A DNA stretch of 64,000 bases from an uncultured virus (IMG/VR IMGVR_UViG_3300020577_013366) (IMGVR_UViG_3300020577_013366), one strand, 5' to 3'; counted from the first letter of the stretch, positions 4,543-21,897 are shown. A program made the numbers and translations. Notes: generated from the letters alone by a model not told the origin.

Positions 4543-5310
4543 TCAGTGGAAGGTGGGCATGATCCCGTGGCGCTCGCGGACCGACGCCTGGAGGTCGGCG
4601 CGCGCGGTGGGGCTGTTCAGGTCGATCTCGCTGGGGGGCTTGGTCTTGAACTGGCGCTGGCCCTGGCCCTCGCCGCTACCCTCGGGGGCAGCGCGCTCTT
4701 GGGCGCCCTCGGCCTTGCCGCCGGTGTCGATCGGCTTGCGCTCGCCGGCGCCGGCCGGGGCCGGCTGCTTGAAGAGGAACGGCTCGGCCTTCTGGACCTT
4801 GGCCAGCGCCTTCTCGGTGTCGTCGGCGCCCGCGGCGAGCTCGCGCTGGACGGCGGCCTGGATGTAGCCGAGCGCCGCGGGGTTCGCCGGGGTCAGCGAC
4901 TTGGTGACGAGGTGGGCGGAGATCTCCGAGCTCAGTCGGGCGGCGGCGAGCTCGGCCTGCACGGCCTTCAGCTTCTCGCTCGCCTCGTCCGCCTCGGCGC
5001 GGGCCTTGGCGGTCTCGTCCATCTTCTCGCGCTCGGCCTTCCGGCTGGCCTCGGCGGCCTGGGCGGAGAGGGCGTCCTTCACCTTCTTCTCGGCGAGCTT
5101 CTCGGCGGCCTTGTTGATGCGGCGCTCCTCGGCGGCTTCCTTCTCGGCGGCCTCCTCGGCTTCCTTCGCCGCCTTCGCGGCGGCCTCGGCAGCGGCCTTC
5201 GCTGCCTGCTTCTGCTCGGGGGTCTCGCCTGCACCAGCTCCGGCGCCGGCCTTGCCGTCTGCGCCCTCGTCCTTGCCGTCTTTGTTCGCGTTCGCGTCGT
5301 TGTCAGCCAT
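4543..5310 (-). CDS. Capsid scaffolding protein
   Basis: Ala/Glu/Lys coiled coil with typical 'PFLFK' motif and Gly-rich tail; GGAG RBS. Confidence 0.8.
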   Translation of the reverse strand: MADNDANANKDGKDEGADGKAGAGAGAGETPEQKQAAKAAAEAAAKAAKEAEEAAEKEAAEERRINKAAEKLAEKKVKDALSAQAAEASRKAEREKMDETAKARAEADEASEKLKAVQAELAAARLSSEISAHLVTKSLTPANPAALGYIQAAVQRELAAGADDTEKALAKVQKAEPFLFKQPAPAGAGERKPIDTGGKAEGAQERAAPEGSGEGQGQRQFKTKPPSEIDLNSPTARADLQASVRERHGIMPTFH

Positions 5311-5825: not shown

Positions 5826-7238
5826 CTACATTGCGCGGGCCAGCCCTGTGCCGTCTGACGACTCTGGGGTGACGCTTTGGCGCAGCGCTCCCGCAACCAC
5901 GAGCATCGCGGCGTGGGCCTGCCACGGCGCCGCGGTGTACGTGGGCGTCGACCGGCGAAGCGGAATCCGCTGGCGCCTCGAGAGCACCACGCGGATGGAG
6001 GCGCGGCCGACCGACAGCAGCAGCTCGACGTTGTCGGCGACGACCCGCACGGAGGTCACGCGCACAGCAAGGCCTCCGGCGGTGACGACCTCGCCGCGGC
6101 TCAGCTCGCCGGCGGTGATGCCCTCGCCGGCGGCCAGGTCGGCGGCGAGCCGGGCGGAGGCGAGGTTGAGCTGGGCGCCCGCGAGCTCCCGGAGCAGCCC
6201 CTGCTCGGCGGACCGATCGCCGCGCTGGTCGATCGGCAACGCGCGCTCGGCTCGGCGGCGCTCCTGCAGTCGCCCGGCGAGCAGGGTGACCGCGGCAGCT
6301 GCAGCAGCGAGGCGCCCGGCGAGCGCCGGCGGTGGGTCGCGCCGCGGGGTCGCGCCCGCCGGAGGCAGGTCCGGCGCCGAGGTGTCCTCCGGCTGGGGGG
6401 GCGGCCGGGAGAGCCGGGGCAGGTTCGGGCCCCACGCGGCCCGGTGGGGGACCACGATCTCCCGGTCGTGCGGGCGGTTCGGTGGCGCCATGTACTCGCG
6501 CTTGCCGTCGCTGAACGGGAGCCGGACCGGGCGGACCTGGCCGTGCACCAGCTTGCTATCCGGTCCGGTCACCTTGTCGAAGGTGGCGACCAGCCGCTTC
6601 AGCATCGGCGACTCGGGCGTGTCCTCCTCGATCATCGCCGCCAGCGCGGTGCCGTTGTAGATCGCGCTGGTCTCGGTCCGCAGGATCCTGTCCACCATCC
6701 ACTGCCGATCGCCGACCACGTCCCGGACCGCCGCCCAGACCCGCGCCCGCGCCTTCGTCCACGGTTGGCCGGTCAGCGCGAGCTTGCCCAGCTCGCCCTC
6801 GATCTCGGCCACCGCGGCGGCGCCGTAGCGCGCGAAGCTGGTGCCGTAGACCCGGAGACGGGTCTTGGCGAGCTGGCCGGCGTTGTGCTCGAGCCAGGCG
6901 AGCGTGTCGAATCGCAGCGGGGTGACGGCGCCGACGAAGCGCTTGTCGAGGTTGTTGAGCAGGGCGACCATGCGCCCCTGGCTGGCGCTGGCGACCGTGC
7001 GGGCCGTGCCGGTGAGCACCCCGGCCTGGCGGACGGCGAGTTGCTCGAGCGTGCTGCGGATCTGCACCATCGCCGCGACCTTGTTCGCCACGCCCCACGG
7101 GCCGATGGACGGCTTTATGTCGCGCTGGAGGTCGGCGATCGCCTCGCGGGCGAGCCGGGTCGTCCTGGCGCCCATCTGGTTGCCGAGGCGGTCGATGTCG
7201 GACTGCATCGCCGCGACGATGAGCGCGGCGTCTGTCAT
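5826..7238 (-). CDS. Minor head protein (Mu gpF/SPP1 gp7-like) with C-terminal extension
   Basis: RILRTETSAIYN, D.VT..DS..VHGQ.R...PF and PPNRPHDR motifs; downstream of portal. Confidence 0.8.
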   Translation of the reverse strand: MTDAALIVAAMQSDIDRLGNQMGARTTRLAREAIADLQRDIKPSIGPWGVANKVAAMVQIRSTLEQLAVRQAGVLTGTARTVASASQGRMVALLNNLDKRFVGAVTPLRFDTLAWLEHNAGQLAKTRLRVYGTSFARYGAAAVAEIEGELGKLALTGQPWTKARARVWAAVRDVVGDRQWMVDRILRTETSAIYNGTALAAMIEEDTPESPMLKRLVATFDKVTGPDSKLVHGQVRPVRLPFSDGKREYMAPPNRPHDREIVVPHRAAWGPNLPRLSRPPPQPEDTSAPDLPPAGATPRRDPPPALAGRLAAAAAAVTLLAGRLQERRRAERALPIDQRGDRSAEQGLLRELAGAQLNLASARLAADLAAGEGITAGELSRGEVVTAGGLAVRVTSVRVVADNVELLLSVGRASIRVVLSRRQRIPLRRSTPTYTAAPWQAHAAMLVVAGALRQSVTPESSDGTGLARAM

Positions 7239-7459
7239 GCCATGGATCCATCATCCGGCGCACGCACGACGGTCAGGTGGCGCTCGTTCGCGGCTGGCCC
7301 CGGGGCTTCGGCGAACGGCATCCACCCGAACGCGACAACGGCAACATGGTGCGCCAGCGACGGGATGCCGTCGTTGATCATGTTCCACACGATGTCGTGC
7401 ACCGCCTGCCCCATCGGCCACATCTGCTCGCCCCAGACCAGCGTGACCTCCTGCATCAC
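7235..7459 (-). CDS. Hypothetical protein
   Basis: Overlapping start/stop with both neighbours. Confidence 0.55.
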   Translation of the reverse strand: MMQEVTLVWGEQMWPMGQAVHDIVWNMINDGIPSLAHHVAVVAFGWMPFAEAPGPAANERHLTVVRAPDDGSMA

Positions 7460-9249
7460 CCGACCTCGCCGCCAGCTGTCGGCTCCTGATCCTCGGCGCC
7501 GTTGTTCGCCGCCGCGCCGTCCTCGGCGGCCTTGTCAGCGCCGTCCTCGGCGCCGCCGAGATTGCCGAGGTCCAACGGCTCTTCCGCCTCCGCCTCTTCG
7601 TGGAGGCGATGCTGCTCCTGCTCCGCGTCGCGCAGGCCGGCAGCGGCGACGAAGAGCTCCGTCGCGGTCTGGAAGGAGAGGAGCTTGGCGCCCGTCGCGG
7701 TCGTCAGCGCGGTCGCCAGGTCCTTCAGGTCGGTCGGCGTCGGCGTGTCGTATGGCGGCCACACCACCCGCACCGACCGGCCCTCGCCGACCTTGTGCGG
7801 CCCGAGCTTTTCCTCCGGCTCGGGCGGCTTCGGCTTCATCGGCGGCGCGGCGATGGCTGGCGGGGCGGCCCCCTCATCACCGGGGTCTGGCGCATCCGGC
7901 TCTTCTGGCTCCTCCGGCTCGGGGGGCTCGACCTTGTAGACCCGGGGCGGGAGAACGATCATCCCGTCACCGGGATCGTCCTCCGAGGTGACGCCCCAGC
8001 CGCGCCCGAGGTTGATCCAGATCTCGGCGAGCTGCCGGATCGTCCAGGTCTGCGCCGTGCGGATCCGGTTCGCCCTGGTCTCCATCCCGCGTCGCAGCTT
8101 CGCCACCGCGACCCCGGACGGTGCACTGGTGATCGTCTCGCTCTCGGGCATCCAGCAGTTCACGTTCTTCAGCACCTGCGCCTGCATCCGGTCGGCGCTG
8201 TCCCAGCCCATCTTCACGCTGTCGCCCTTGGTCTCCAAGTAGGTGACCTCGCCGCCCTTGCCCACGCGGATCTCGTCCCCGGTGCCCTTGGCGAGGCGGG
8301 GGAACTGCTGCGCCATCGACATCGGGTCGTCGGCCCGCACCATCTTCGGCTGCGTGTTCGCCTTCGTCGCCTTCAGGGCGTGCGACTGGACGCGATCGAC
8401 CTCGTCGCACATCTCCAGGTTCTGCTGATTCAACAGGTCGTACTCGCCCTCCGGCGAGTGGGTCTTGCGCGTGTTCTGCACCCACACCACCGGGCACCTC
8501 CCGGCCTTGTGCTGGACCTGTTCCTCCACCTCGAGCGGGATGTTCTTGTCGTTGTCGAGCTCGACATCCTTGAACTCGATGTACTCGGTGGTGGTCCACA
8601 TGCGGGTCCGGATGCGGACCTTCGGGCGAGCGGTCGGGCCCTCCGTCGGGTCGGGGGCGACCTCCACCTTGTACTGGTGGATCACCTCGGCCGGCACCCA
8701 CCGCTTGCGGTTCGCCCACCGCAGCACCTGGACGGCGAAGCTCGGCAGCGTCTCGCAGTTCGGCTGGTTGGCGGTGATGCTGGGGATCATCACCGCCGAG
8801 CCGGTGGCGCCAGCGTAGTCGCGCGCCTCCTGGTGGGCGTCGAAGGTGCAGCTCTCCTCGAAGATGGCAGTGAGGTAGGCGGCCGTGTCGTCGTCGGCGG
8901 GGCAGAGCAGCGTCGGCGCGACGCCCGTGGTCAGCTCGGTGAAGCGGGAGACCACGCGGCGGGCGAGACCGGCGGGGGCATTCGGCCGGCGGCTGTCGTA
9001 GCTCACCCGCTGGATCTCGGAACCCCAGATGAAGCCCTTGTCCCGGTGCCGATCGGCGATGTAGCTGACCCCGGAGCCGCGGGATCGCCCCTGGAAGTCG
9101 GCGTAGCAGTAGTCGTGCTGGCTGCCCTCCCACCAGCGGTACAGGGTGCAGAGCTCCTGGTAGCGCGGGTCGGCGTTGCGGTCGTAGACGTAGACGGGGG
9201 GGAGCGACGCCTTTTCGGCGGGCGAGGCGGGCTCTTTGGCGTAGTCCAT
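7456..9249 (-). CDS. Portal protein
   Basis: 597 aa; 'H..GRCPVV' and 'SGVAV..L' SPP1-type portal motifs; acidic tail; heads capsid operon. Confidence 0.8.
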   Translation of the reverse strand: MDYAKEPASPAEKASLPPVYVYDRNADPRYQELCTLYRWWEGSQHDYCYADFQGRSRGSGVSYIADRHRDKGFIWGSEIQRVSYDSRRPNAPAGLARRVVSRFTELTTGVAPTLLCPADDDTAAYLTAIFEESCTFDAHQEARDYAGATGSAVMIPSITANQPNCETLPSFAVQVLRWANRKRWVPAEVIHQYKVEVAPDPTEGPTARPKVRIRTRMWTTTEYIEFKDVELDNDKNIPLEVEEQVQHKAGRCPVVWVQNTRKTHSPEGEYDLLNQQNLEMCDEVDRVQSHALKATKANTQPKMVRADDPMSMAQQFPRLAKGTGDEIRVGKGGEVTYLETKGDSVKMGWDSADRMQAQVLKNVNCWMPESETITSAPSGVAVAKLRRGMETRANRIRTAQTWTIRQLAEIWINLGRGWGVTSEDDPGDGMIVLPPRVYKVEPPEPEEPEEPDAPDPGDEGAAPPAIAAPPMKPKPPEPEEKLGPHKVGEGRSVRVVWPPYDTPTPTDLKDLATALTTATGAKLLSFQTATELFVAAAGLRDAEQEQHRLHEEAEAEEPLDLGNLGGAEDGADKAAEDGAAANNGAEDQEPTAGGEVG

Positions 9250-9336
9250 CCGCCGGCGAGGCTATCACGCAGGAAGGCCGGCGGCGCGGGGTGCATCATT
9301 CCCGCGCCGCCGGCCTCGCCATCATCCCCCCTTCAA

Positions 9337-9406
9337 CAGCCCAGGCCGGGTACGGACCGGCGTCTCCCGCGAGTAGGGGCGGGTGTTCTCGCTGAACTAC
9401 CGAGCT
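9337..9406 (-). tRNA. Atypical tRNA-like RNA (8-nt anticodon loop CCCUACUC)
   Basis: Full cloverleaf: AGCTCGG/CTGGGCT, GTTC/GAAC, CCCGC/GCGGG, GCCGG/CCGGC; non-canonical D and T loops; no encoded CCA. Confidence 0.65.
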
Positions 9407-9436
9407 GGCCGTTTCTACGCCGGGTCGGCGGACGGA

Positions 9437-10087
9437 TCAACCTGCCATCTTCCGCGCGGCGATCAGCGTGGCGAGCGTGCTCAAGGCAGCCGGGCTGTCC
9501 TTGTCGCCCCAGTAGTTCAAGCGGTCGAGGTAGGCCGGGTGGTAGGCGATCAGCAACGCCGCGCCCTCCACGGTCATCGCCGGCTTCGGGGTGAACTCGA
9601 ATGGCCGCGGGAGCGACAGCGGCACGGAGAGCTCCTCTCCCATTTTCAGCGCGTGCGGCGACACGCACATGAGCGACCCCGCTGCGTAGGCTCCGAGGGC
9701 GACGATCACCCGCGGCGCGATCGCTATGAGTTGCTCGGTCAGGTGGGTGTGGCAGGTCCGCACGGTGGCGAGGCTGGGCTTGCCGTTGCGGGAGCGGTCG
9801 CCGGGCTGTCCCGGAGGCCAGCAGGCGACCGCGTTCGTGATGTAGACCCGCTGCTCGGGGAGGCCGGCGCGCTCGAGCAGATCGGTCAGGAGGCGGCCGG
9901 CGGCGCCGACGAAGGGCCGGCCCGCCGCGTTCTCCTCGGTTCCGGGCGCCTCGCCGACGAGGACGATACGGGCGGTGGGGCTGCCCCGGCCCATGACAGG
10001 GGCCTTGGCGGTCGAGCGGAGGGAGCAGGCGGTGCAGGCCGCAAGCGCGGCCGCGGCGTCAACGAGGGTCGGGCGGGGCTGGTCCAT
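9437..10087 (-). CDS. udg: Uracil-DNA glycosylase, family 4 (4Fe-4S)
   Basis: CxxC, GEAPG..E...GRPFVG.AG, ITNAV.C.PP, HPAY motifs. Confidence 0.92.
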   Translation of the reverse strand: MDQPRPTLVDAAAALAACTACSLRSTAKAPVMGRGSPTARIVLVGEAPGTEENAAGRPFVGAAGRLLTDLLERAGLPEQRVYITNAVACWPPGQPGDRSRNGKPSLATVRTCHTHLTEQLIAIAPRVIVALGAYAAGSLMCVSPHALKMGEELSVPLSLPRPFEFTPKPAMTVEGAALLIAYHPAYLDRLNYWGDKDSPAALSTLATLIAARKMAG

Positions 10088-10122
10088 GCCGCCACCGTGG
10101 GGCGGCGCGAGGCCGGCGTCAA
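10088..10122 (-). promoter_or_regulatory. Sigma70-like leaderless promoter of udg
   Basis: TTGACG-N17-CACGGT-N6-ATG. Confidence 0.5.
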
Positions 10123-10177
10123 CGCGGCGAACGATTGTGCGGATCCGTCTGGCCCGTGTCGGGCACTCTACCGTCGC

Positions 10178-10528
10178 ATGCGAACCATCACCGTCCACGA
10201 CATCCCCGACCTTCCCACCCCCATCGTCACCGCCCGCGACGACGCCGGACCCGGCGGCGCCCCACACCTGTACGGGATCGCCTGGACCGGAGGCGAGCTC
10301 GAGCTGCATTTCCAGGAAGGCCCCCGCGGGGAGGTCGGCGAGAACGGCATCACCGAGCTGTCGCTGGTCGCCGTCCTCATCGACAGGCTCGAGGCGTTCC
10401 AGCGCGGCCCATACGCCTCGCAGGACAACGCGCAGGCGCTCGCCCATCTCGGCGACACCCGCGAGGCGCTGCTCAAGCGCCACCGCGAGCGTCTTGCCCG
10501 CGGCGTCCAGGGTACGTCGGCGGTCTGA
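10178..10528 (+). CDS. tad1: Tad1-family anti-Thoeris/anti-CBASS signal sponge
   Basis: GPGGAPHLY...FQEGPR...NGI....L...LIDRLEAFQRGPYAS.DNA.AL.HL......L.R...R.ARGV.GT matches Tad1 as recalled. Confidence 0.85.
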   Translation: MRTITVHDIPDLPTPIVTARDDAGPGGAPHLYGIAWTGGELELHFQEGPRGEVGENGITELSLVAVLIDRLEAFQRGPYASQDNAQALAHLGDTREALLKRHRERLARGVQGTSAV

Positions 10529-11062
10529 TCACCGCGGCGGACGTCGGTGCCCGCGCGGCATCGTCACAGTGAACGACGCGACCCAGGCGTGCAGGGCCTC
10601 CACCCAGTGCCCCATCTCGTAGCAGATCTCCTCGTCAGCCCGACCGCCGTAGAACGGTCCCTCCACATATTCCATGACCTCGTGGATCTCGGGCTGCTCG
10701 GCCTGGAGGCGGCGGACAAGGGCGTGGGTGAGCTCGTGCGCGACGAAGCCGAGCGTGACGGTGTCCACGCACAGGTGCAGCTTGCCCAAGCACGGAACGG
10801 TCCGCTGCCCCGCCGCCTTTCCAGCCACGAAGCTGATGATGGTCGGTGCGGGCTGGAACAGGCCGCCGACGTGGGGTAGGCCCATGCGCTCGCGGAACTC
10901 GGCCTGGCGGAACCACAGGTAGCAGCGGACGAAGCACCGCCTCCCGTTGCTCGCCTTTAGCAGCGAGGGCAGGCGGCACCGAGCGAGGACGCCCCGCCGC
11001 TGGTCGCGACGGGGCACCTTCTCCGGCCGGCAGGCGTACCAGGTCTGCGGCGGGTACTGCAT
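10529..11062 (-). CDS. HExxH zinc-metallopeptidase-like protein
   Basis: VAHELTHA plus downstream DEEIC acidic motif. Confidence 0.6.
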   Translation of the reverse strand: MQYPPQTWYACRPEKVPRRDQRRGVLARCRLPSLLKASNGRRCFVRCYLWFRQAEFRERMGLPHVGGLFQPAPTIISFVAGKAAGQRTVPCLGKLHLCVDTVTLGFVAHELTHALVRRLQAEQPEIHEVMEYVEGPFYGGRADEEICYEMGHWVEALHAWVASFTVTMPRGHRRPPR

Positions 11063-11063
11063 G

Positions 11064-12227
11064 TCAGGCCGCGGTGGGGCTCAGCCAGGCGACGGCCTCG
11101 AGCAGGTCCATGTCGTGGTTGCCCACCGACACCTTCCAGGTGGGGCCGCCGTCCACGCGGCCGACCCGGAGCTCCCCCCACGGCATCCCGGCGCGGCTGT
11201 GCTCCGCGCAATCGACGAGGGCACCCTGGCGGATCCGCCCAGCCAGCGCTTTGAGCACGCTGCCGAGGCCGGCCACGTAGCCGTTGATGTGCTCGACGAT
11301 CTCGCGCTCGCGCACGTTGCTGATGTAGTTGTTTTCGCGGATCAGGTGCGCCCACGCGCTCCGCAGACCGGCCAACGAGTTGCCCTTGTACCCGTGGTCG
11401 TGGGTGTTGCTCGGCTCCATCGACAGGCGCAGGCCGTCGCGGTTGTTTGCGATCCATGCGGCGACCGCCTTGCCAGCCTCGAGCGTCGCCGACCCCGCCA
11501 TGCGGCGCATGGTGCTCGACAGGTTGTCCACGGCGCGGTGGTGGACGATCGCGGCCCCGGCGATGACGACGAGCTCGGACCGCTCGCCGGCCTGTGGGTA
11601 CGGGAGATCCACCTCGTACCGCTGCGGGACGCGCGTGTCGCCGCTGAGCGAGTGCTGGACGGCGGCGCGCTTGAACTCCGCCAGCTCCGGATGGAGGTCG
11701 CGCGCCAGGTGTCCGAAGCTCTGCGTGAGGCCCGACCGGCGGGCCCACGCATCGACGATCTCGAGCGCCTCGGTCTGATCCATGCCGCCGTAGGCCACGT
11801 CGATGTCCCTGGGGATGGGGGTCGGCAGGCAGGATGGGTCGGCGGCGAGCCGGCGGGCGGCCTTGGCCGCGCTGCCGAAGATGACGCAGACCGGCGCAGG
11901 GGCGGTGGTGATCAGCGTGATGTCGTAGCCGATCTCCTCCACCATCTCGGCCGAGAGGACGACGCCCTCGGGCTGGCGCTTGCGGAGCTGCAGAGCGATG
12001 GCGGAGTCGCCCGGCTCGTAGACCATGGTGATGCGGTTGGTGACGACGGGGACGCCGAGGACGGTCGCGAGCACCTGCGCGGAGCCGTCGTGGCCGATGG
12101 CGGAGGTCAGCTCCTTGTGGGAGAGCGCGTCCTCGGCGAGGCGCCGGGCCTCGGCGCGGCCGATTGTGCGGGTGACGTAGCGGAGGCCGGGGGTGTGGCA
12201 GATGGGAGCGTTCAGGAGGTACAGCAC
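11064..12227 (-). CDS. AcrIII-1 (DUF1874/YddF) ring-nuclease domain fused to a nucleotidyltransferase-like domain
   Basis: YLLNA...SAIGHD...NRI...R.PEG.VL...IGY followed by IFGSAA...PRDIDV. Confidence 0.8.
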   Translation of the reverse strand: MLYLLNAPICHTPGLRYVTRTIGRAEARRLAEDALSHKELTSAIGHDGSAQVLATVLGVPVVTNRITMVYEPGDSAIALQLRKRQPEGVVLSAEMVEEIGYDITLITTAPAPVCVIFGSAAKAARRLAADPSCLPTPIPRDIDVAYGGMDQTEALEIVDAWARRSGLTQSFGHLARDLHPELAEFKRAAVQHSLSGDTRVPQRYEVDLPYPQAGERSELVVIAGAAIVHHRAVDNLSSTMRRMAGSATLEAGKAVAAWIANNRDGLRLSMEPSNTHDHGYKGNSLAGLRSAWAHLIRENNYISNVREREIVEHINGYVAGLGSVLKALAGRIRQGALVDCAEHSRAGMPWGELRVGRVDGGPTWKVSVGNHDMDLLEAVAWLSPTAA

Positions 12228-12295
12228 GGGATTCTCGTTTCGATGGGGGAACTGATGGGGCAGGATTGCCCGAACGGGTCCGCTTGCGCGGCGGG

Positions 12296-12469
12296 TCAGG
12301 AGAGCAGGTAGAGGGCGCCGACGTAGATGCAGCACCACAGCGCGGCCGAACCGGTGACGATAAGGTGCCAGCGCGCGTCGAGCTCGTGGACGATGTAGAT
12401 GCCGACGAAGCCGACAAATGGCAGGGCGCCGCAGAACAGCATGACGTCGTAGGGAGTCGTGGCGGTCAT
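12296..12469 (-). CDS. Small two-TM membrane protein
   Basis: Two hydrophobic segments; ATGA overlap. Confidence 0.55.
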   Translation of the reverse strand: MTATTPYDVMLFCGALPFVGFVGIYIVHELDARWHLIVTGSAALWCCIYVGALYLLS

Positions 12470-12882
12470 GCTTCCTCCCGGCAGTCGGCGTCGAGCTCCA
12501 GATCGCCGGGGAAGGCTGGCCCCTCGCGCTCGGGGTCGCCGACGTTGCGCAGGTTGCCGATGAGCGCGCAGAGCACGTCGCAGTCGTCGGCGGGGATGAG
12601 GTCGTCTTGCGCCTCGCTGAGCTCGGTCAGCTGCACGCGCCCGAGGGCGATGCGGCACATGAGCTGGCGGGCCGGGATCTCGCTGGAGCGCTCGTCTCGC
12701 GGGCCGAACATCTGATCGAGCACTTCGTTGGCCAGGTCGATGCCGCGCCAGTAGTCGTCGCGCCACAGGACGCGATGCTTGCCCGGCGGCACCTTCGGGT
12801 CCGGCGGGTCGGCAGGATAGTGCTCGAGCGCCGCGGTGGCGCCGGCCCGGATGGCGTCGAAGTTGATGGGGTGGGCGGTCAT
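12466..12882 (-). CDS. Hypothetical protein
   Basis: MTAHPINF start, coupled overlaps. Confidence 0.6.
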   Translation of the reverse strand: MTAHPINFDAIRAGATAALEHYPADPPDPKVPPGKHRVLWRDDYWRGIDLANEVLDQMFGPRDERSSEIPARQLMCRIALGRVQLTELSEAQDDLIPADDCDVLCALIGNLRNVGDPEREGPAFPGDLELDADCREEA

Positions 12883-13046
12883 TCGCCCCTCCGGTCCAGC
12901 GCGGAGGCCACCATCAACGCGCCTGGGAGGCCCGAGAATTGCCCGATGAAGAGCAGGAGCGAGGTGATGTACGGCTCGGCGAAGCTGGCGACGACGCCCC
13001 AGATGCACATGGCGAGGCCGAGGTACAGACGCTGACGGCGGTTCAT
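12879..13046 (-). CDS. Small two-TM membrane protein
   Basis: MNRRQRLYLGLAMCIWG, hydrophobic, coupled overlaps. Confidence 0.55.
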   Translation of the reverse strand: MNRRQRLYLGLAMCIWGVVASFAEPYITSLLLFIGQFSGLPGALMVASALDRRGE

Positions 13047-13678
13047 ACGCGAATCTCCGCCGGCAGTGTGAGGACGAGGTTGCCGAGACGCACCTCCTTG
13101 GTGGCGCCGATGTACCGCACCGGCGCCTCTGGCATGTCCTCGGGGGTGAGATCGCGGATCACGACGACCCGGCCGCGGGCTCGGAGCCGCGCGGCGACAG
13201 CATCGGCGCGGGCGAGCGCCTGCTGCCGGGTGTCGCAGCCGGTGCTCTCGGCGTGGCGAAGGACATCGGCGCGGTCCAGCCCGGTCCACAGGCTGCGGAC
13301 GGTCACCCGCGTCCAGCTGACGCACCACGGGGCAACCTCGAGGACGAGCTCCTCGGTCGGCGCCACCGCGGCCACGATGCGATCGAGCCACGGCGCGAGC
13401 GGGTGGGCGCCGAGCGGCTCGCAGCCCTCCCAGAGCTGGAACAGGCGGCGCAGGCCGAGCCAGGCGAAGGTGTGCCGGACGGCGGGGAGGAGGGGGCGCT
13501 CGGCCACGGGCTGAAACGGGCGCTCGGCGACGCGCTGCTCGGGAGCGGAGATGGTGACGCGGCGGCTGTCCGCGGTGACCGTGAAGTGCTCGTGCAGGAG
13601 GGTGCTGGGCACGGCGCGAGCTGGGCGAGGTTCGGGCTGGATGTCGGCGAGGAGGCCGGCGAGGAGGTCGATCTGCAT
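13043..13678 (-). CDS. Hypothetical protein, first gene after strong promoter
   Basis: ORF with overlap to next gene. Confidence 0.6.
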   Translation of the reverse strand: MQIDLLAGLLADIQPEPRPARAVPSTLLHEHFTVTADSRRVTISAPEQRVAERPFQPVAERPLLPAVRHTFAWLGLRRLFQLWEGCEPLGAHPLAPWLDRIVAAVAPTEELVLEVAPWCVSWTRVTVRSLWTGLDRADVLRHAESTGCDTRQQALARADAVAARLRARGRVVVIRDLTPEDMPEAPVRYIGATKEVRLGNLVLTLPAEIRV

Positions 13679-13779
13679 GTTGTTCTCGTGGGCCGAACCA
13701 GGCCCGGCCAGGGCGCAGAGGAGTAGTCGCAGCTCGGGGGCAATCGATCCCTCGGGCGTGTCGATTTCCCGACCCGGCG

Positions 13780-13820
13780 AAAGTAGGCGCTCCTCGCGTC
13801 CGCGTCAACTATTTATTTTC
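13780..13820 (-). promoter_or_regulatory. Strong sigma70-type early promoter with UP element (copy 1)
   Basis: GAAAATAAATAG-TTGACG-N17-TACTTT; 17 bp identical to 31422-31438. Confidence 0.8.
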
Positions 13821-14208
13821 ATGTTTCGCCGAGGTCGCCCAGGAGCCTGGCGAGCGCAATCTGGGTCGCGGCCAGCTCGGCATGCGGGTGGCCACGGTCC
13901 TGGCCGGCAGCCTTCAGGCGGGCGACCTCGGGCTCGATGTGGGCCAGCCGGCGCTCGAAGGTCCGGATCGCCAGCCGGAGCTCCGCCGGCTTGAAGCGCA
14001 CCGGCTCCCCCGGGATCATGGCGACCGCCTTGCGCAGGGCGGAGGCGCCGAGCCGAGCTCGGCGTGCGGCCCCGAGGATGGCCTGGGCATCGGCGATCGT
14101 GAGGTACAGGCCGCGGTCGGTGAGCCGAGGACCGTCCGCCCCAAGCTCCCGCGCCTCGGCCAACATCTCCTCGTCCGACAGGCCCTCGGGGTCGCGCGCC
14201 ATGTGCAC
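13819..14208 (-). CDS. Hypothetical protein
   Basis: Helical ORF in minus-strand operon. Confidence 0.6.
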   Translation of the reverse strand: MHMARDPEGLSDEEMLAEARELGADGPRLTDRGLYLTIADAQAILGAARRARLGASALRKAVAMIPGEPVRFKPAELRLAIRTFERRLAHIEPEVARLKAAGQDRGHPHAELAATQIALARLLGDLGET

Positions 14209-14211
14209 GGG

Positions 14212-14736
14212 CTACTCGTCCTCCGCGTCGTCGGGCAGCGGGCCGTACAGGGCCCGGCGGCGGACGACGGTCAGGCTGGCGGCGTGCTGCTCGATGGGCT
14301 TGGGCCAGACCCTCCGGACGGTCTGGCCGGCCTCGGGCGCCTGCACGTCGATGACCCCTGGCGGCTTGGGGCGATGGACCACCGGAGCGTTCCCGGCGGG
14401 GCGCGAGGCCAGCTGAGCCTTCAGGCGCATCAGCTCGGAGCTGAGCGCCTGCACCTTCCGCTCGGCATGCAGCCGGCCGTTGCGCTCCCGCTCGATGCGC
14501 TCGGCGTCGTCCTCCACCTCATCGAACAGCCCGCCTGCGGGGTCCTGCTCCCACGCTTTGCGGATGGCGATGCTGCCCGAGGCGGTGACCTTGGCCGGCT
14601 CGAACAGCGTGTGGATCGGGTCCGTGTTCGGGTCGAGCCCGAGCAGGTCGCAGGTGGCCAGCCAGCGGCGGGCGTAGTCGCGGGCGAGCTCAAGGTCGGC
14701 GAGCTCGTCTGGGGTGATCGGCGAGGTCACGGGCAC
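14212..14736 (-). CDS. Hypothetical coiled-coil protein
   Basis: ORF in operon. Confidence 0.6.
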   Translation of the reverse strand: MPVTSPITPDELADLELARDYARRWLATCDLLGLDPNTDPIHTLFEPAKVTASGSIAIRKAWEQDPAGGLFDEVEDDAERIERERNGRLHAERKVQALSSELMRLKAQLASRPAGNAPVVHRPKPPGVIDVQAPEAGQTVRRVWPKPIEQHAASLTVVRRRALYGPLPDDAEDE

Positions 14737-17018
14737 CTCGCCAGCTCGCTGCGCATCTTCGCCACGTCCATCTGGTCGATGTCGCTGCTGGCGAACCCGC
14801 GGGTGAGCAGGGCGTCCCTGAGCGCGACGATCTCAGCCGAGCTTGTAGGGGCGTCTGCAGCCGACCCACCCTCCCGCGAAAGCTCCACGCACATCGGCCA
14901 TTTTGTGCAGGCGCGTCCGCGGTAGTTCGCCAGCGAGCGCATGTCCTCCACCATGCGCTTGCCCGCAGCCTCGATGTCGAGCTGCGCCAGGTCCACGCTG
15001 ATATCCGCGGCGGTCGGGCAGTCGGCGCTGGCCTGCAGGGCGGCGAGGTTGCTGACGAGGGTGGCGAGCTGGCGGACCCTGGCGAGCGTCGCGTTCCAGG
15101 TGTCCTCGGTGTTGCCGACTTCCAGCCTGATGAGCCGGAGAACCTCCTGCGCGCGCTGCAGCAGAAATCCGGGCGAGTGGATGACGGTGACACCGTGCCG
15201 CTGCTTGTGGTCCTGCTCGAACGTCAGGACGGCCACCACCTCCTCCAGGATGGTGCCGAGCCGCGCGCCGCTGTGGTTCGTGGCGAGATAGTGGGCGACA
15301 GCGCCCGCGGCGAGCTGACCGCGAGCGCCGTCCTGCTTCACGAAACCCGCCAGCGAGGTCGGCGGGTCCGCGTGCTGCGGCCAGCCGAGCACGTTGCAGA
15401 TCTCCACCCACCGGCGGGCCTGCTGCTTCTGCTGGGTGCGCTCGCGACCAGCACGCTCTGCCGCAGCGACGACCTGACGGTGCCGCGAGTCCTCATCCGC
15501 CAATTTATTCCGCAGCACCTCATTCGTCTGCTCCAGCTCTGCCGCAACCTCGCGCAACTGGTCGCCTTCGTTCGGTCCGGCTTTGTCGAGCAGCTCGAGC
15601 AGGTCGTGGACCTGGCCGGTGAGCGAACTGCCGGGGACGCGCAGGCGCGGGTGCTCGGCGAAAAGGAGCTTGATGTCCTCCACCTGCTGCATGGCCGCGG
15701 TCGCCCGCATGACCACCGCATCGGGGTCCATGCCGGTGCGCCAGCCGAGGCGCTCGAGCGTGGTCTTGTGCGCGGCGACAGTTTGTTCGGTGAGCATCTC
15801 CGCATCCTTCGCGCGAGCATTTGCCTCGTTTTTTTGGTGGCGCATGGCCTCGTAGACCGACTGGTTGATGATGGCGCCAGGGGCTGGCTCGCGCGCCCAC
15901 AGCAACGCGAGAACGTCGTGGAGATCTGGCTGGGTCCTGGCGGAACTGCCTGGTTTGAGCTCGCCCAGCGCTGCGCGGAGCGTGTCCTGGAACATCTGGC
16001 CGCCACCGTGGGTGTCGATGAAACCGGCGATATCGCCAGGAGGATCCTTCGTGGCGCAGATCCCGAGAGTGGCGCAGATCGACTCCCACCGATGGGTCTG
16101 CGTGCTCATCCAGCGGACCATTTCCACTTCGTCAACGAGGTTGTGGCGGAGTTTTGGGTCGATCGATGCGATGGTGGCCAGCTTGGCCTCCAAATCTTGT
16201 GTCTGCTTGGCCCGCTTCGCGGCCCGCTGGAACACATCCATCGGATCGTCGCCTGGGTGGTATCCGCAGAGCCACAGCGCGTGCCCGACCTGCTCGCTGG
16301 TGAGCGACCATTCTCCTTCGCCGCTGAGCACACCCAGAAGGTGTCGCCACGCGCTGCGAATCGCAGACCCCGGTGATGTGAAGTCGGCCGACACGTGCTC
16401 CTCATGGGTCCATGTCCACGCGCGCGTGGCCGGGGCGACGTGGAGCCTCCTGCCAACCGGCATAGCCCCTTGCAGTAGCATGCACAGGTCCTCGTCACGT
16501 ATCTGGGTGGGGGAGCCGATCGACTGCGCCGCGAGGGTCGCCAGCCGCAGCAGCCGTGACTTCCCGGCGGCCTTGTCGGCCTCCTCTTGCTCGGCGAGCT
16601 CGGGATGGGTCGGCAGCAGGGCCTCGCGCAGCACCTTCGAGCTCTCGGCGATGACGGTGGCGAGCCGACCCATGGCGGCGGTGTGCTGGGTGAGCCGCTC
16701 GGCGACGCCCTTCACCATGACCTCGGCGAGGGCGACCTCCGTTGGGTGGGGGCCGCTGCTCAGGTCGAAGAACGGGCCGAGGGTGTTCTCCGCGAACCCG
16801 GGGAAGGTAGCGAGCTGGCGCAGGTGGCCGATGCTGGGGGCGGTGTGTTGGTTCAGATTCAGCGCCTGCGCCGCGAGCCTCCAGCGGATGATCGGCTGGA
16901 GGGCGGCCTGGTCGAGCTCGTCCCAGTCGATCTCGTCGGCGGGGTCGAAGCCGATCGCTTCGAGGAACAGGCGGAGCTCCGGTGGAAGCGTGGGGTGGGT
17001 GACAGGTTCGGGCGTCAT
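14727..17018 (-). CDS. Large helical/coiled-coil protein with internal duplication
   Basis: GAGGAG RBS before MTPEPV; repeated RW..IC..LG....DPP...AGF motif. Confidence 0.7.
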   Translation of the reverse strand: MTPEPVTHPTLPPELRLFLEAIGFDPADEIDWDELDQAALQPIIRWRLAAQALNLNQHTAPSIGHLRQLATFPGFAENTLGPFFDLSSGPHPTEVALAEVMVKGVAERLTQHTAAMGRLATVIAESSKVLREALLPTHPELAEQEEADKAAGKSRLLRLATLAAQSIGSPTQIRDEDLCMLLQGAMPVGRRLHVAPATRAWTWTHEEHVSADFTSPGSAIRSAWRHLLGVLSGEGEWSLTSEQVGHALWLCGYHPGDDPMDVFQRAAKRAKQTQDLEAKLATIASIDPKLRHNLVDEVEMVRWMSTQTHRWESICATLGICATKDPPGDIAGFIDTHGGGQMFQDTLRAALGELKPGSSARTQPDLHDVLALLWAREPAPGAIINQSVYEAMRHQKNEANARAKDAEMLTEQTVAAHKTTLERLGWRTGMDPDAVVMRATAAMQQVEDIKLLFAEHPRLRVPGSSLTGQVHDLLELLDKAGPNEGDQLREVAAELEQTNEVLRNKLADEDSRHRQVVAAAERAGRERTQQKQQARRWVEICNVLGWPQHADPPTSLAGFVKQDGARGQLAAGAVAHYLATNHSGARLGTILEEVVAVLTFEQDHKQRHGVTVIHSPGFLLQRAQEVLRLIRLEVGNTEDTWNATLARVRQLATLVSNLAALQASADCPTAADISVDLAQLDIEAAGKRMVEDMRSLANYRGRACTKWPMCVELSREGGSAADAPTSSAEIVALRDALLTRGFASSDIDQMDVAKMRSELARCP

Positions 17019-17050
17019 GCGGTTGGTCTCCTCGGCCGGCGTTCGGCCAT

Positions 17051-17128
17051 GGGTCGCATGGTGGCGGCGCCGGGGGCGAGCGTCAACGGGCTTGACGGCG
17101 GGCGCGGGCGTCCGCAGGTTCGAGCGGC
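17051..17128. promoter_or_regulatory. Back-to-back divergent sigma70-like promoters
   Basis: CGTCAA-cgggc-TTGACG core; minus TTGACG-N17-CACCAT, plus TTGACG-N17-CAGGTT. Confidence 0.55.
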
Positions 17129-17497
17129 ATGCCACCCATCCCGTATTCGTGCTCCGCCTGTCTCGCCCCCATCATCGCCTACAAGCCCCAGGACGACCTG
17201 TGCAAGAACTTCGTGGCGAAATGCCGATGCACCGCCGTGATGCTCGATCTGCTGACGCCGATGGATAACCGAGGCACCGCCCGCGCGTTCAACGTGTCGC
17301 GCCTCGAGGAGGTCTGGGGTCGCTTCGCCGGTGTCCTGCTTGATCAGGAGCGGTGGGTGGAGCCGCCGAAGCCGTGCTACCGCTGCAACTTCGAGGATTT
17401 GGAGGCCAACGTCGCGGCTTTCAATGCGGGCAAGGTGCACCTCCCCGGCGCCCACACCTGCGGGCTCGACAGCCGCCACCAGCCCGCCGCGAGCTGA
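17129..17497 (+). CDS. Cys-rich zinc-binding protein
   Basis: CxxC, CxC, CxxC, HxC motifs. Confidence 0.6.
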   Translation: MPPIPYSCSACLAPIIAYKPQDDLCKNFVAKCRCTAVMLDLLTPMDNRGTARAFNVSRLEEVWGRFAGVLLDQERWVEPPKPCYRCNFEDLEANVAAFNAGKVHLPGAHTCGLDSRHQPAAS

Positions 17498-17499
17498 CC

Positions 17500-17661
17500 A
17501 TGTTCAAGCTCCGCCTCGCCTGCGCCCTCCGCCTCCTCCCGTTCCTCGGCCCGCTGCTGATCGAGCGCGACCTCCTGCGGGTGAAGCTCCTCGCCACCGA
17601 GCTCGAGGCCGATGTCCTCCGCGCGCAGCTGGCCCGCGAGCGCCGGCCGGTGGTGCTGTGA
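17500..17661 (+). CDS. Small hypothetical protein
   Basis: Hydrophobic N-terminus plus coiled coil; GTGA overlap. Confidence 0.5.
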   Translation: MFKLRLACALRLLPFLGPLLIERDLLRVKLLATELEADVLRAQLARERRPVVL

Positions 17662-17969
17662 CCAACCCGGACGGCTGGCACCGCGGTCGCGGCGGCTGGG
17701 CGCTGTTCAAGCTCGGCTCCTGCGTGGCGCTGGTCGAGCCGGAGGGCGCCTCCTACCGCTGGACGGTGGCGCTCGGCGAGGCCGTGGACCGCCTCGAGGC
17801 CAACCCCACCACGAACGGCACCGCGGACAGCCCGCTGCTCGCGATGGAGCACGCCTCGGTCTGCTGGTCGAGCTTCTGCGACCGCGCTGTCATCTGCGGC
17901 AGCCTCTGCGCGGACCTGCATCAGCTCTGGGCGTCAGGTCCCACCAGCCCCGCCCCGGCTCTGCGGTAG
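17658..17969 (+). CDS. Hypothetical protein
   Basis: GTGA overlap with upstream gene. Confidence 0.5.
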   Translation: MTNPDGWHRGRGGWALFKLGSCVALVEPEGASYRWTVALGEAVDRLEANPTTNGTADSPLLAMEHASVCWSSFCDRAVICGSLCADLHQLWASGPTSPAPALR

Positions 17970-18269
17970 CGCGTCGATCGGGTCGGTCTTGGGCCGCGTG
18001 TTCCTGGGCTTCGTCACCGGCCGCCCGCCGGCTGCCGCGTTCATCGTCGCCGCCTGGATCGCCATGCCGAGCACCTGAAGCGCTCCGACGAGGTCGGGCA
18101 TGTGCTTGTTCACGGCGCCCCGGACCCACCACCCGACCAGCACGATCGCGCACGCGGCCGGCGACCCCTGGATCGCCGACATCATCCACTCGGGGATCTG
18201 CGGATCTACCACTGGGGCCACGAGGACAGCGTACCGGAGGCCCTTGATCTGGTCGAGGCGAGGCTCCAC
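17934..18269 (-). CDS. Small membrane protein
   Basis: Central hydrophobic segment. Confidence 0.45.
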   Translation of the reverse strand: MEPRLDQIKGLRYAVLVAPVVDPQIPEWMMSAIQGSPAACAIVLVGWWVRGAVNKHMPDLVGALQVLGMAIQAATMNAAAGGRPVTKPRNTRPKTDPIDALPQSRGGAGGT

Positions 18270-18396
18270 GCTGGCGCCCGTGCGGTTCTGGCAGATCTCG
18301 ACCTACGGTCGCGTGGCTGCGCCCGCTGCCGGCGACGGCGGGGCCGATGGCGCGGAGGTAGCGGCGGACCCGCTCGGAGACGTCGAGGCCCACGGC

Positions 18397-19089
18397 TCAG
18401 CCGCCCCGCGGGGTGTTGGTGTCGCAGTCGTCAACGTAGGAGTCATCGGTGCGCCGGGTACAGCGCGGGCAGACGCCATCGAACTGCGCCACGACGAACA
18501 GGCACCCGCAGATGCACCGGATCGAGCCAACCGGATCACCGCCGGGAACGCGCTCGCCCAGCATCGCCGTCGTCGCTGCCTTGTGGTCCAGCGCCGCCGC
18601 GAGGCCGTAGATCGGCGTCCCGCCCACGAACACCACCGGCTTGCCGTCGACGCCCCAGCAGGTCTCCAGCACGCACTCGAAGGGGAAGACGCCGTAGCAC
18701 GCCTCCGCGGCGTCCGTCCACTCGCCTTGGTGGCAGGACCAGCCCGTCTCGCTGGCACCGCGCTGGCGACCACACGCATTGCACGGGCCCGCGCGGTGGA
18801 CGACGCGGGCGAGCAGCGTGCAGTCGCGGTGCGGCATGCCCAGCGGCGGCTCCTGCAGGTCGAGCAGTACGTCGTGATCGAGCACCGCCGGCCGACAGGG
18901 TCCGCCGCGCAGGTCCTCGTGGTCGATGCCCCAGACCCGGCCAAAGCCGATCGAGCAGTCGGCGTCCTGCGGCGGGTCGGCGGTCGAGTTGCCGGCGTGG
19001 TAGGTGAACTCGATCTCGGCCCAGCCATGCGGGCAGGCGGCGAAGATGGCGGAAAGCGTCGGGGCGCAGGGGAGGTTTTGCCAGGTCAT
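18397..19089 (-). CDS. Cys-rich hypothetical protein
   Basis: Multiple CxxC pairs; ATGA overlap. Confidence 0.6.
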   Translation of the reverse strand: MTWQNLPCAPTLSAIFAACPHGWAEIEFTYHAGNSTADPPQDADCSIGFGRVWGIDHEDLRGGPCRPAVLDHDVLLDLQEPPLGMPHRDCTLLARVVHRAGPCNACGRQRGASETGWSCHQGEWTDAAEACYGVFPFECVLETCWGVDGKPVVFVGGTPIYGLAAALDHKAATTAMLGERVPGGDPVGSIRCICGCLFVVAQFDGVCPRCTRRTDDSYVDDCDTNTPRGG

Positions 19090-21364: not shown

Positions 21365-21477
21365 GCGGTGTTCCTTGGGTGCCCTGCGGAGGGCGTTCGA
21401 TCATGGGATGATCAGATTCTTCCTGGCGCCTGTAAGCACCCACTGGCGCCAGCGCAACCGCATGTCCCGATAGACCT

Positions 21478-21855: not shown

Positions 21856-21897
21856 GGCTCGCACGGTGGGTCGCCACCGCTTCGGGCGCAAGGTCAG

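Follow-up and report, generated by a model that had tools for sequence, protein, structure and literature searches.

A block of eight open reading frames (ORFs) in a novel tailed phage genome of ~70% GC raises the question of whether it was assembled against the nucleotide signals used by host immunity. The original prediction described it as an anti-defence island aimed at nucleotide signalling, flanked by portal and terminase genes. ORF annotation of the window, that is, the whole 64-kb stretch of DNA analysed, bears out these flanks, with the portal at 7456-9249 and the large terminase at 21898-23502. A GC3 frame plot and an ORF listing were used to map the genes; together with profile and sequence searches they recovered all of the expected uracil-DNA glycosylase (UDG), Tad1, HExxH protein, AcrIII-1 fusion and two proteins of no assigned family. 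The features discussed here are as follows.

9275..9316, minus strand: GC-rich hairpin with a 16-bp perfect stem (MFE folds of 9250-9436, both strands)
9337..9407, minus strand: cloverleaf-shaped fold (MFE -40.8; shuffles average -41.4)
9437..10087, minus strand: g1, UDG superfamily, family-4/UdgX-like, 216 aa (PF03167; GC3 frame agrees)
10178..10528, plus strand: g2, Tad1 homologue, 116 aa (PDB phmmer, phrog_2428, GC3 and GC2 phases)
10529..11062, minus strand: g3, HExxH protein, 177 aa, pI 9.5 (alignment)
11064..12227, minus strand: g4, AcrIII-1/Crn2 (DUF1874) fusion, 387 aa (PF08960 at about residues 1-108, then a domain of ~280 aa)
12296..12469, minus strand: g5, 57 aa, two hydrophobic segments (GC3 phase, hydropathy)
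12466..12882, minus strand: g6, 138 aa, acidic, no assigned family (GC3 phase)
12879..13046, minus strand: g7, 55 aa, weakly hydrophobic segments, borderline transmembrane (GC3 phase, hydropathy maximum 1.63)
13043..13678, minus strand: g8, 211 aa, no assigned family (first gene after the promoter-like site)
13780..13808, minus strand: promoter-like site TTGACG-N17-TACTTT (consensus match, AT-rich stretch ahead)

The block is probably best read as an accessory cassette whose core is a counter-defence pair, Tad1 and AcrIII-1, which would remove nucleotide alarm signals. No further counter-defence gene is recognisable in the window; the two lie within 2.1 kb (10178-12227), 0.5 kb apart and with one gene between them, and their domains are identified by homology, fold and key residues alike. 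The predicted aim at nucleotide signalling thus holds for Tad1 as a gcADPR sponge and AcrIII-1 as a cA4 ring nuclease, but the UDG, g3 and g5-g8 are at most putative members of this theme.

All genes of the block run on the minus strand except Tad1. The minus-strand run from 13678 down to 10529 is present as predicted, but it does not continue as an unbroken unit to the UDG gene, as Tad1 lies antisense between the latter and the HExxH gene, convergent with g3 and with zero spacer. Within the run, g8, g7, g6 and g5 are linked through three ATGA overlaps (translational coupling), among them the start of g7 on the stop of g8 and the start of g5, which has a good GGGAGG ribosome-binding site, on the stop of g6. 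A single nucleotide separates the g4 stop from the g3 start (TGAcATG). Identical pieces of the cassette were seen in contigs of sequencing runs from three studies, and a search for a prophage or relative returned none.

The predicted sponge and the ring-nuclease domain

In a phmmer search of the PDB, residues 22-114 of the 116 of g2 matched six solved Tad1 sequences with E values of 1.4e-11 to 4.3e-11, the best being 8kbb (1.4e-11) and 7uav (3.2e-11). The gene product also matched phrog_2428 (2.1e-22), and had no match in Pfam. The cbTad1 study lists 11 residues in contact with gcADPR, namely H29, G55, R57, R78, F82, F87, N92, R109, R113, G120 and N122 (10.1101/2022.05.03.490397). When these contacts were transferred by hand, in cbTad1 numbering, onto the alignment of g2 with the PDB sequences, nine of the 11 were identical (H29, G55, R57, R78, F82, N92, R109, R113, G120), and the two that were altered, F87 to Y and N122 to S, are conservative replacements. 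The cyclic-trinucleotide (cA3) site of cbTad1 is absent from g2 in the same alignment (R90 to Q, T97 to A). Trinucleotide binding is a secondary, non-defining activity of Tad1. Taken together, g2 is a credible homologue of the gcADPR sponge. Most likely it would sequester the Thoeris signal gcADPR; the same pocket may perhaps also take cyclic dinucleotides, and binding of cyclic trinucleotides is probably missing. With its gcADPR pocket intact and the trinucleotide site gone, g2 would be a natural separation-of-function form of Tad1. In a wider tblastn survey Tad1 was matched in 180 of 50,697 phage records, mostly, by genus word, of Bacillus (88), Pseudomonas (60) and Vibrio (10).

The ORF of g4 spans 11064-12338, with the GTG at 12227 as the most likely start. 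Its N-terminal ~100 residues match PF08960 with an E value of 2e-19 and 70 bits (cut-off 26), match AFV3-109 at 1.2e-15, and have the fold of AFV3-109 and SIRV1 gp29. The histidine of its SAIGHD motif aligns with that of SIGHD in SIRV1 ORF114 (2x4i) and does not vary across the 15 family members. His47 of SIRV1 gp29 is described in the AcrIII-1 study as catalytic and absolutely conserved, and the cA4 site as formed by a dimer (10.1101/778746). The N-terminal domain is accordingly a credible homologue, by sequence, of the cA4 ring nuclease AcrIII-1. It would most likely dimerise and cleave cyclic tetra-adenylate, by which the ancillary effectors of type III CRISPR would be switched off. The genes around the fusion (portal, terminase, scaffold, recombination) point to a viral rather than a CRISPR-locus (Crn2) context, and no Cas family came up in the Pfam and PHROG scans of ORFs or in the PADLOC scan of 11 ORFs.

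Two published points bear on the role of this domain. According to the AcrIII-1 study, signalling in Actinobacteria is typically by cA6 and not cA4 (10.1101/778746), so a cA4-specific nuclease would perhaps be of limited use if the host were actinobacterial. A later preprint questions whether AcrIII-1 acts as an anti-CRISPR in native systems (10.1101/2023.01.10.523387).

The C-terminal domain of the fusion

All 14 full-length homologues of g4 (395-475 aa) have PF08960, as do 15 of 15 members of the family. When the C-terminal 277 residues were the query of an exhaustive HMMER search, five proteins came back, four of them fusions matched from about residue 111 on. Among the 50,697 phage records, 31 carry the AcrIII-1 N-terminal domain, and none of the 31 covers the C-terminal part. 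Judged by these searches, the domain of ~280 residues occurs only in a rare AcrIII-1 fusion family. The domain matched no Pfam family, and no nucleotidyltransferase (NTase) family was matched in Pfam among the 15 members at E <= 5; comparison with the PDB by sequence and by profile gave no match, and the fold search no significant one.

The residues that are invariant in this domain, in its own numbering, are G8, S9, D31, D67, H69, R131, D167, Y170 and R247, with D33 at 90%, and E71 also belongs to the conserved acidic/His/Arg set. Half of the domain is helical; strands are found at 3-7, 31-37 and 65-68 and a helix at 9-19, and the G-S / D-x-D / D-x-H pattern sits on this strand-helix-strand core, which suggests a metal-dependent enzyme. 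In Pol-beta-type NTases, G-[GS] follows the first strand, [DE]-x-[DE] lies on the second and a third carboxylate on a later one. The domain fits this motif: G8-S9 come after strand 3-7, D31-x-D33 fall in strand 31-37, and D67 falls in strand 65-68. The gap between G-S and D-x-D is 21 residues, and in NTases this spacing is typically shorter. An NTase-type enzyme is possibly what the domain is, and it stands as the leading guess.

Such a domain would add to the ring nuclease a second, metal-dependent catalysis of NTase type, directed at either a nucleotide signal or an effector. It may degrade or modify a signal beyond the reach of AcrIII-1 (cA6, cA3 or ADPR-derived), synthesise a competing nucleotide, or nucleotidylate an effector, a HEPN RNase for example. 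MNT antitoxins nucleotidylate HEPN toxins, and Gad2 is a phage NTase in counter-defence. We put forward only tentatively the full proposal, in which g4 is a bifunctional weapon against type III or several systems, uniting a cA4 nuclease with a C-terminal domain (a new fold or a derived NTase) of second anti-signalling activity, and in which g3 and g8 are accessory. If the domain does hit a second signal or effector, it would bring a counter-defence activity of a new kind and a new reagent for work on cyclic-oligoadenylate signalling. The fusion also offers a direct experimental handle, as the ring-nuclease domain has a known assay and is usable as an internal control.

The same domain could instead be a scaffold or ligand-binding module, either an oligomerisation domain for the nuclease dimer or a second sponge site. 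Its helical half and the want of a catalytic family in Pfam, PDB-profile and fold searches are in keeping with this, as is the dimer that AcrIII-1 must form to build its cA4 site, as stated in the AcrIII-1 study (10.1101/778746). A set of invariant or conserved residues such as D31, D33, D67, H69, E71, R131, D167 and R247 is, however, seen more typically at catalytic or metal sites than in scaffolds, and we hold the non-enzymatic alternative to be doubtful.

Neighbouring genes and borders of the cassette

The remaining genes were assessed one by one, since the original prediction counted them into the island. The UDG matches PF03167 with an E value of 2.7e-29 and 102.5 bits (cut-off 24.3), falls just below the cut-off of TIGR00758 (120.4 against 125.3 bits), and stays under the curated cut-offs of the UdgX and archaeal type-4 models, TIGR03914 (131.1; 189.95) and NF040953 (127.2; 250). 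It shows GEAPG and a CxxC. The gene is present as expected; an ordinary repair function fits it, and it is most simply a DNA-repair enzyme, with an at most putative place in the anti-signalling theme.

The HExxH protein has H109, E110, H113, E144, E145 and Y148 invariant in six of six aligned sequences and is predicted to be a small zincin-like metallopeptidase. Pfam, PHROG, NCBIfam and PADLOC assign it to no family, and no peptidase family was matched. In the ESM Atlas it recovered 30 viral clusters (score 0.96, TM 0.55-0.62) with no common Pfam family, and the leads were weak (Peptidase_M78 in 10% of one cluster; a DA1-like match at TM 0.37). Its distant relatives lie directly upstream of DHFR in four of seven loci and among head genes in one of seven, and none of the 65 ORFs neighbouring them matches a known anti-defence Pfam family. 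The co-occurrence with acr and tad genes that had been proposed as a check failed to appear among these distant relatives: none of five viral records with one of them carries AcrIII-1 (PF08960) or Tad1.

As to the small genes, g8 has five homologues (47-70% identity, 53 invariant columns); searches of every library gave it no family, tblastn against phages no match, and the ESM Atlas no usable match. For close homologues of g3 and g8 the longest contigs measure 3179, 92951 and 13030 bp, lengths that also recur among homologues of the fusion, which suggests that those of g3 and g8 share contigs with fusion homologues; this may be plain synteny in one phage group. The acidic g6 (pI 4.4; 28 D+E against 14 K+R) has no family in four libraries (Pfam, PHROG, NCBIfam, PADLOC) and no tblastn match in the 50,697 phage records. 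Two tiny membrane proteins had been predicted; both g5 (hydropathy maximum 2.31 over 19 residues) and g7 are hydrophobic, but the second is only borderline transmembrane.

A promoter-like site and a GC-rich hairpin frame the cassette, as judged from sequence. The former lies where 140 bp separate g9 from g8 and is one of exactly two TTGACN-N17-TANNNT sites that the 64-kb window contains (13808-13780 and 31426-31398, both minus strand), against 0.46 +/- 0.70 sites in 50 shuffled sequences. The claim that it is one of the two strongest promoters survives to that extent, but a sigma-70 promoter scan of 9000-15000 gave no site, and what remains is a consensus match. The hairpin lies between the stop codon of the UDG gene and the start of the portal gene, has fold z values of -2.89 (plus strand) and -1.44 (minus strand), and is a candidate terminator-like or RNA-stabilising element closing the cassette. 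Spurious hairpin-type Rfam matches at 9275-9317 coincide with its stem. A terminator scan found none in the region, this hairpin included, because it has no T-run. Expression by late read-through is possible, since the cassette lies within the packaging/head gene run and in the same orientation. The announced tRNA-like RNA finds no support beyond its cloverleaf shape: ARAGORN found no tRNA gene in the window, Rfam tRNA had no match at E <= 1 over 9000-14500, the 43 Rfam matches at E <= 10 over 9240-9450 included no tRNA and none close to the gathering score, and 107 of 200 shuffles folded as stably or better (z = 0.16).

Could the neighbourhood be due to chance, the gap between terminase and portal being a generic accessory dump where Tad1 and the fusion inserted independently among unrelated repair, maturation-protease and membrane-protein genes? 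The interval of 12.6 kb does hold many unrelated ORFs without a family, Tad1 is on the strand opposite to all its surroundings, as expected of a separate insertion, and the g3 family occurs elsewhere in very different contexts. Against this, the two recognisable counter-defence genes stand 2.1 kb from end to end with one gene between, the fusion and g3 are joined stop to start, and both families are rare (AcrIII-1 in 31 and Tad1 in 180 of 50,697 phage records), which leaves an accidental grouping somewhat unlikely. The reading in which everything from the UDG to g8 is counter-defence, with g3 and g5-g8 as new inhibitors expressed early from 13808-13780, is unlikely: tight packing behind a single promoter-like site, the small and strongly acidic g6, the same-sized contigs and the lack of housekeeping or structural families for g3 and g5-g8 (Pfam, PHROG, NCBIfam, PADLOC) speak for it, but the wider g3 family sits by DHFR or head genes and in records without PF08960 or Tad1, the contig sizes are an indirect sign that could stem from synteny among related phages, an ordinary function in repair accounts for the UDG, and g5 and g7 may be small membrane proteins of any kind. 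Small acidic proteins are common among protein inhibitors and DNA mimics.

We thus keep to the cassette with the Tad1 and AcrIII-1 pair at its core. New immune inhibitors might reasonably be sought in the fusion and its small neighbours, while g3 and g5-g8 as anti-defence genes make a weak claim, much weaker than that for the pair; the prediction that 10529-11062 and 12296-13678 are good candidates for inhibitors gains from the apparent co-travel of close g3 and g8 homologues with the fusion, but loses by the place of the wider g3 family near DHFR and structural genes. The small neighbours are a screening list only.

Comparison with known systems

Two viral ways of silencing nucleotide alarm signals are known, ring nucleases and sponges, and here they are found together in one phage. 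The pair is a real anti-signalling pair, and what is new is a ring nuclease fused to a conserved, enzyme-like domain without recognisable relatives. Anti-defence genes tend to cluster in phages, and the block resembles such clusters ("acr loci", islands) in having two counter-defence families within 2.1 kb and small unassigned ORFs around them. It differs in its placement between terminase and portal and in that no aca-type regulator or similar marker was recognised in the block by Pfam, PHROG, PADLOC and NCBIfam scans.

Compared with the solved Tad1 proteins (CbTad1, PDB 7UAV/7UAW; CmTad1, 8KBB), g2 is of similar size (116 against 123-138 aa), aligns over 22-114 and has a near-identical gcADPR pocket; it differs from CbTad1 in R90/T97 (Q/A) and in its origin from a 70% GC phage. 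For the C-terminal domain of g4 there is a phage precedent in the Bcp1 NTase, which is reported to make competing 3',3'-cGAMP against nucleotide-signalling immunity (10.1101/2025.06.06.658234). The G-S ... D-x-D pattern is common to both, but the motif given in that report, GS-x-AY[GAN]T-x4-SDxD with NP-x-h2[DE], is unmatched by g4 (10.1101/2025.06.06.658234). As regards the ring nuclease itself, the known viral AcrIII-1 members among the PDB matches (in a group with SIRV1 gp29, AFV3-109 and YddF) are stand-alone proteins of 109-138 aa, whereas in g4 the domain is the N-terminal quarter of 387 aa. The Csx1-Crn2 fusion of Marinitoga (PDB 8Y6Z/8Y7G) has its ring nuclease at the C-terminus, paired with the host's own cA4-activated CARF-HEPN effector; in g4 the ring nuclease is N-terminal and joined to an unassigned domain. 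The Marinitoga protein self-limits host defence, whereas the context of g4 is a phage.

Gene map and genome setting of the cassette

The gene calls for the cassette, an island between the portal and large terminase genes, were made from a GC3/GC2 frame plot, the ORF list and the junction sequences, which together gave eight genes and bore out the gene content and order of the original prediction.

Genes of the cassette (coordinates, strand, description)
g1: 9437-10087, minus strand, UDG
g2: 10178-10528, plus strand, Tad1 homologue
g3: 10529-11062, minus strand, HExxH protein
g4: 11064-12227, minus strand, AcrIII-1 fusion
g5: 12296-12469, minus strand, short hydrophobic peptide
g6: 12466-12882, minus strand, acidic protein (pI 4.4)
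g7: 12879-13046, minus strand, short hydrophobic peptide
g8: 13043-13678, minus strand, protein with no family match

ATGA overlaps join g8 to g7, g7 to g6 and g6 to g5, and the stop codon of g4 is followed one base later by the start of g3. The longest possible ORF for g4 begins at a GTG at 12338. Since all 14 g4 homologues start with M(x)xLYLLNAP, the residue just before LYLLNAP in g4 is encoded by a GTG codon, and residues 1-34 of the longer version are modelled with pLDDT < 50, the start was placed at the GTG at 12227.

The minus-strand genes had been described as lying behind one of the two strongest promoters in the window. In the 140-bp gap upstream of g8, the element TTGACG-N17-TACTTT follows an AT-rich stretch. 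A sigma-70 promoter scan and a terminator scan of 9000-15000 each returned nothing, the former missing this element because TACTTT agrees with TATAAT at three positions only. The form TTGACN-N17-TANNNT is that of high-GC actinobacterial promoters. It was found at exactly two sites in the window, the one upstream of g8 and another at 31426-31398 (minus strand), against 0.46 ± 0.70 in 50 shuffles. The claim is thereby upheld as a consensus match, by which the site upstream of g8 would be promoter-like. The site at 31398-31426 (minus strand) likewise follows an AT-rich stretch and stands just upstream of an ORF at 31131-31391. Within the leader that separates g8 from the promoter-like site (13700-13760, minus strand), a short inverted repeat, AATCGA-N13-TCGATT, was seen by eye and could be a candidate operator. 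At the other end of the cassette, in the stretch separating the UDG stop codon from the start of the portal gene, the fold of either strand is dominated by a perfect 16-bp GC stem (9275-9316); it is not followed by a T-run and therefore was not called a terminator.

The tRNA-like RNA of the original prediction was not supported. The stretch 9337-9407 (minus strand) does fold as a cloverleaf, at an energy typical of shuffled sequence (z = 0.16; 107 of 200 shuffles fold equally well or better), and it was rejected on this ground together with the absence of any tRNA or tmRNA in an ARAGORN search of the window and of any Rfam tRNA match, even at E <= 10, for a 211-base query.

The window has a GC content of about 70% throughout, carries almost all of its genes on the minus strand and gives family matches for few of its ORFs. 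The structural genes that frame the cassette are the following.

Structural genes around the cassette (coordinates, description)
4543-5310: scaffold
5826-7238: head-morphogenesis protein
7456-9249: portal (phrog_64, 5e-11)
21898-23502: large terminase (phrog_38, 4.5e-37)

RecE/RecT-like genes, helicases and two DNA methyltransferases are also present. The nearest phage terminases share 21-24% identity with that of the window, 9250-14300 found no counterpart among phages by blastn, and no related locus was returned by searching genome contigs with the terminase or viral contigs with the portal; the record for the window's own proteins is a 75,202-bp contig. The genome is that of a tailed phage without a close described relative. 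The gap between terminase and portal measures 12.6 kb (9250-21897), and no ORF within it, including one for an 802-aa protein at 14727-17135, matches a family other than UDG, Tad1 and the AcrIII-1 domain. The cassette lies inside the terminase-to-head gene run and in the same orientation, so that its genes could be expressed late, by read-through, just as readily as early from their own promoter.

Elsewhere in the genome, a 387-aa protein at 39746-40909 (minus strand) combines a YAcAr/SLOG domain (PF10686, 1.4e-6) with DUF4326 (PF14216, 3.7e-11), and is another nucleotide-centred gene, of possible relevance to counter-defence, far outside the island. The methyltransferases at 23927-25126 (minus strand) and 60263-60811 (plus strand), a D12-class N6-adenine enzyme and an MT-A70 enzyme, are likely anti-restriction functions. 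Adjoining a methyltransferase, at 25000-25437 (minus strand), a small protein bears a DUF3268 zinc finger (PF11672, 7.6e-25) and a topoisomerase-type C4 zinc ribbon (PF01396, 1.7e-11).

The cassette stretch, or parts of it, is present in sequencing runs of three studies, with no RNA run among those recorded. Contigs of four runs were compared; three contain parts of the cassette identical in sequence, and no clean variant lacking the cassette was found, joints with sides of 20-30 letters being disregarded. The stretch at about 18950-20400 is polymorphic: metagenome contigs differ from it at many bases, and several short contigs represent alternatives to it.

The Tad1 homologue and the unassigned neighbours

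The island had been read as aimed at nucleotide signalling. By homology this holds for g2 and for the AcrIII-1 part of g4, and it would be a candidate reading for the other genes; the observation itself was largely right. Residues 22-114 of the 116 in g2 match six solved Tad1 sequences (E 1.4e-11 to 4.3e-11), and g2 matches phrog_2428 at 2.1e-22, with no match in Pfam. The cbTad1 report gives 11 gcADPR contacts (10.1101/2022.05.03.490397). Mapped through an alignment with solved Tad1, nine of these are kept in g2 (H29, G55, R57, R78, F82, N92, R109, R113 and G120), and two are changed (F87 to Tyr, N122 to Ser). R90 and T97, which a second report describes as required to bind cyclic trinucleotides and to inhibit NucC (10.1101/2023.11.15.567273), are Gln and Ala in g2. 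Judged by these residues, g2 is likely a gcADPR sponge without the trinucleotide site; it possibly also binds cyclic dinucleotides. Alone among the genes of the block it runs on the plus strand, and its end directly abuts g3 with no base between them, so that by strand and abutment it looks like a separate insertion. Tad1 gave tblastn matches in 180 of 50,697 phage records, mostly of Bacillus and Pseudomonas phages.

The unknown neighbouring genes had been proposed as good candidates for new inhibitors of host immunity. The UDG superfamily protein g1 (PF03167, 2.7e-29), which falls under the cut-offs of the family-4 and UdgX models, was considered as a counter-defence gene and rejected; no result ties it to immunity. 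A holin/spanin pair was also rejected for the small membrane proteins g5 and g7, the only lysis-like match being weak and about 50 kb off, at 61348-61965. For g6, tblastn found no relatives in the phage collection. Five homologues of g8 share 53 invariant columns, with no tblastn match in phages, no related locus for the alignment in viral contigs and no usable match in the ESM Atlas, its own model having a pLDDT of 0.44.

In g3, an invariant HExxH is followed about 30 residues downstream by Glu-Glu-x-x-Tyr; in the ESM Atlas it matches 30 clusters (score 0.96, TM 0.55-0.62), mostly viral hypothetical proteins, with faint peptidase leads. Its relatives (25-46% identity) occur in one GenBank phage and six IMG/VR loci. 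In four of these seven loci, three from IMG/VR (L003, L004, L005) and Stenotrophomonas phage BUCTxx99 (L001), a dihydrofolate reductase gene stands directly downstream, a recurrent pairing that might indicate a role in nucleotide metabolism; in one of the seven, the g3 relative follows capsid and adaptor genes. No co-occurrence with known anti-defence genes was seen around these relatives: none of the 65 neighbouring ORFs scanned (105 crude ORFs minus 40 short or overlapping) matches a known anti-defence family, and neither PF08960 nor Tad1 was found in the five of six viral records searched whole, four of which are fragments.

Among homologous proteins from the protein search, the longest contigs have equal lengths for g3 homologue P0025 and g4 homologue P0003 (3,179 bp), for g8 homologue P0018 and g4 homologue P0011 (92,951 bp), and for g8-cluster member P0028 and g4 homologue P0010 (13,030 bp). 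These equal lengths suggest that two or more additional lineages carry g3, g4 and g8 together, a pattern that fits functional linkage and shared phage ancestry alike.

The AcrIII-1 fusion and its C-terminal domain

The AcrIII-1 fusion g4 is the piece deserving attention; it belongs to a small, conserved family that joins a well-understood ring nuclease to a second domain. Its N-terminal ~108 residues match PF08960 with 70 bits (cut-off 26), AFV3-109 (E 1.2e-15) and SIRV1 ORF114, and the PADLOC Csx16 model matches the same stretch. The two-part architecture is found in all 14 near-length homologues (395-475 aa, 39-53% identity). By exhaustive HMMER search of 1.84 billion representatives, the C-terminal 277 residues retrieved five proteins only: four are AcrIII-1 fusions matched from about residue 111, and the fifth, of 2069 aa, is matched over 43 residues (E 1.5e-4). 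The N-terminal domain is matched by 31 phage records, in none of which the match reaches into the C-terminal one, and no related locus was found with the fusion alignment in viral, metagenome and genome contigs, nor with P0011 in metagenome contigs.

The C-terminal domain (~280 residues, numbered separately below) resisted assignment. Pfam at E <= 5 on all 15 family members gave nothing beyond weak noise, to which ADSL_C (four of 15 members, best E 0.0014) and DUF7155 (one of 15) were consigned. No match was obtained in the PDB, either by phmmer or with the family profile on the C-terminal part, in BFVD, or by Foldseek at E <= 0.001. In the model, a strand (3-7) leads into the invariant G8-S9 and a helix, a second strand (31-37) bears D31-I32-D33, and a third (65-68) bears D67-x-H69-P70-E71. 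The catalytic residues of pol-beta-type nucleotidyltransferases come in this order. The domain is confidently modelled yet unrecognisable, with invariant residues that look catalytic. That it is a new anti-signalling enzyme, served by g3 and g8 as accessories, is a tentative reading considered rather unlikely.

Nucleotidyltransferases have a precedent in counter-defence in the Bcp1 enzyme, which makes competing 3',3'-cGAMP; the Bcp1 motif published there is unmatched in g4 (10.1101/2025.06.06.658234). No AcrIII-1 ring nuclease fused to such a domain is described in the portions of the literature covered by the search, where the only ring-nuclease fusion mentioned is Csx1-Crn2.
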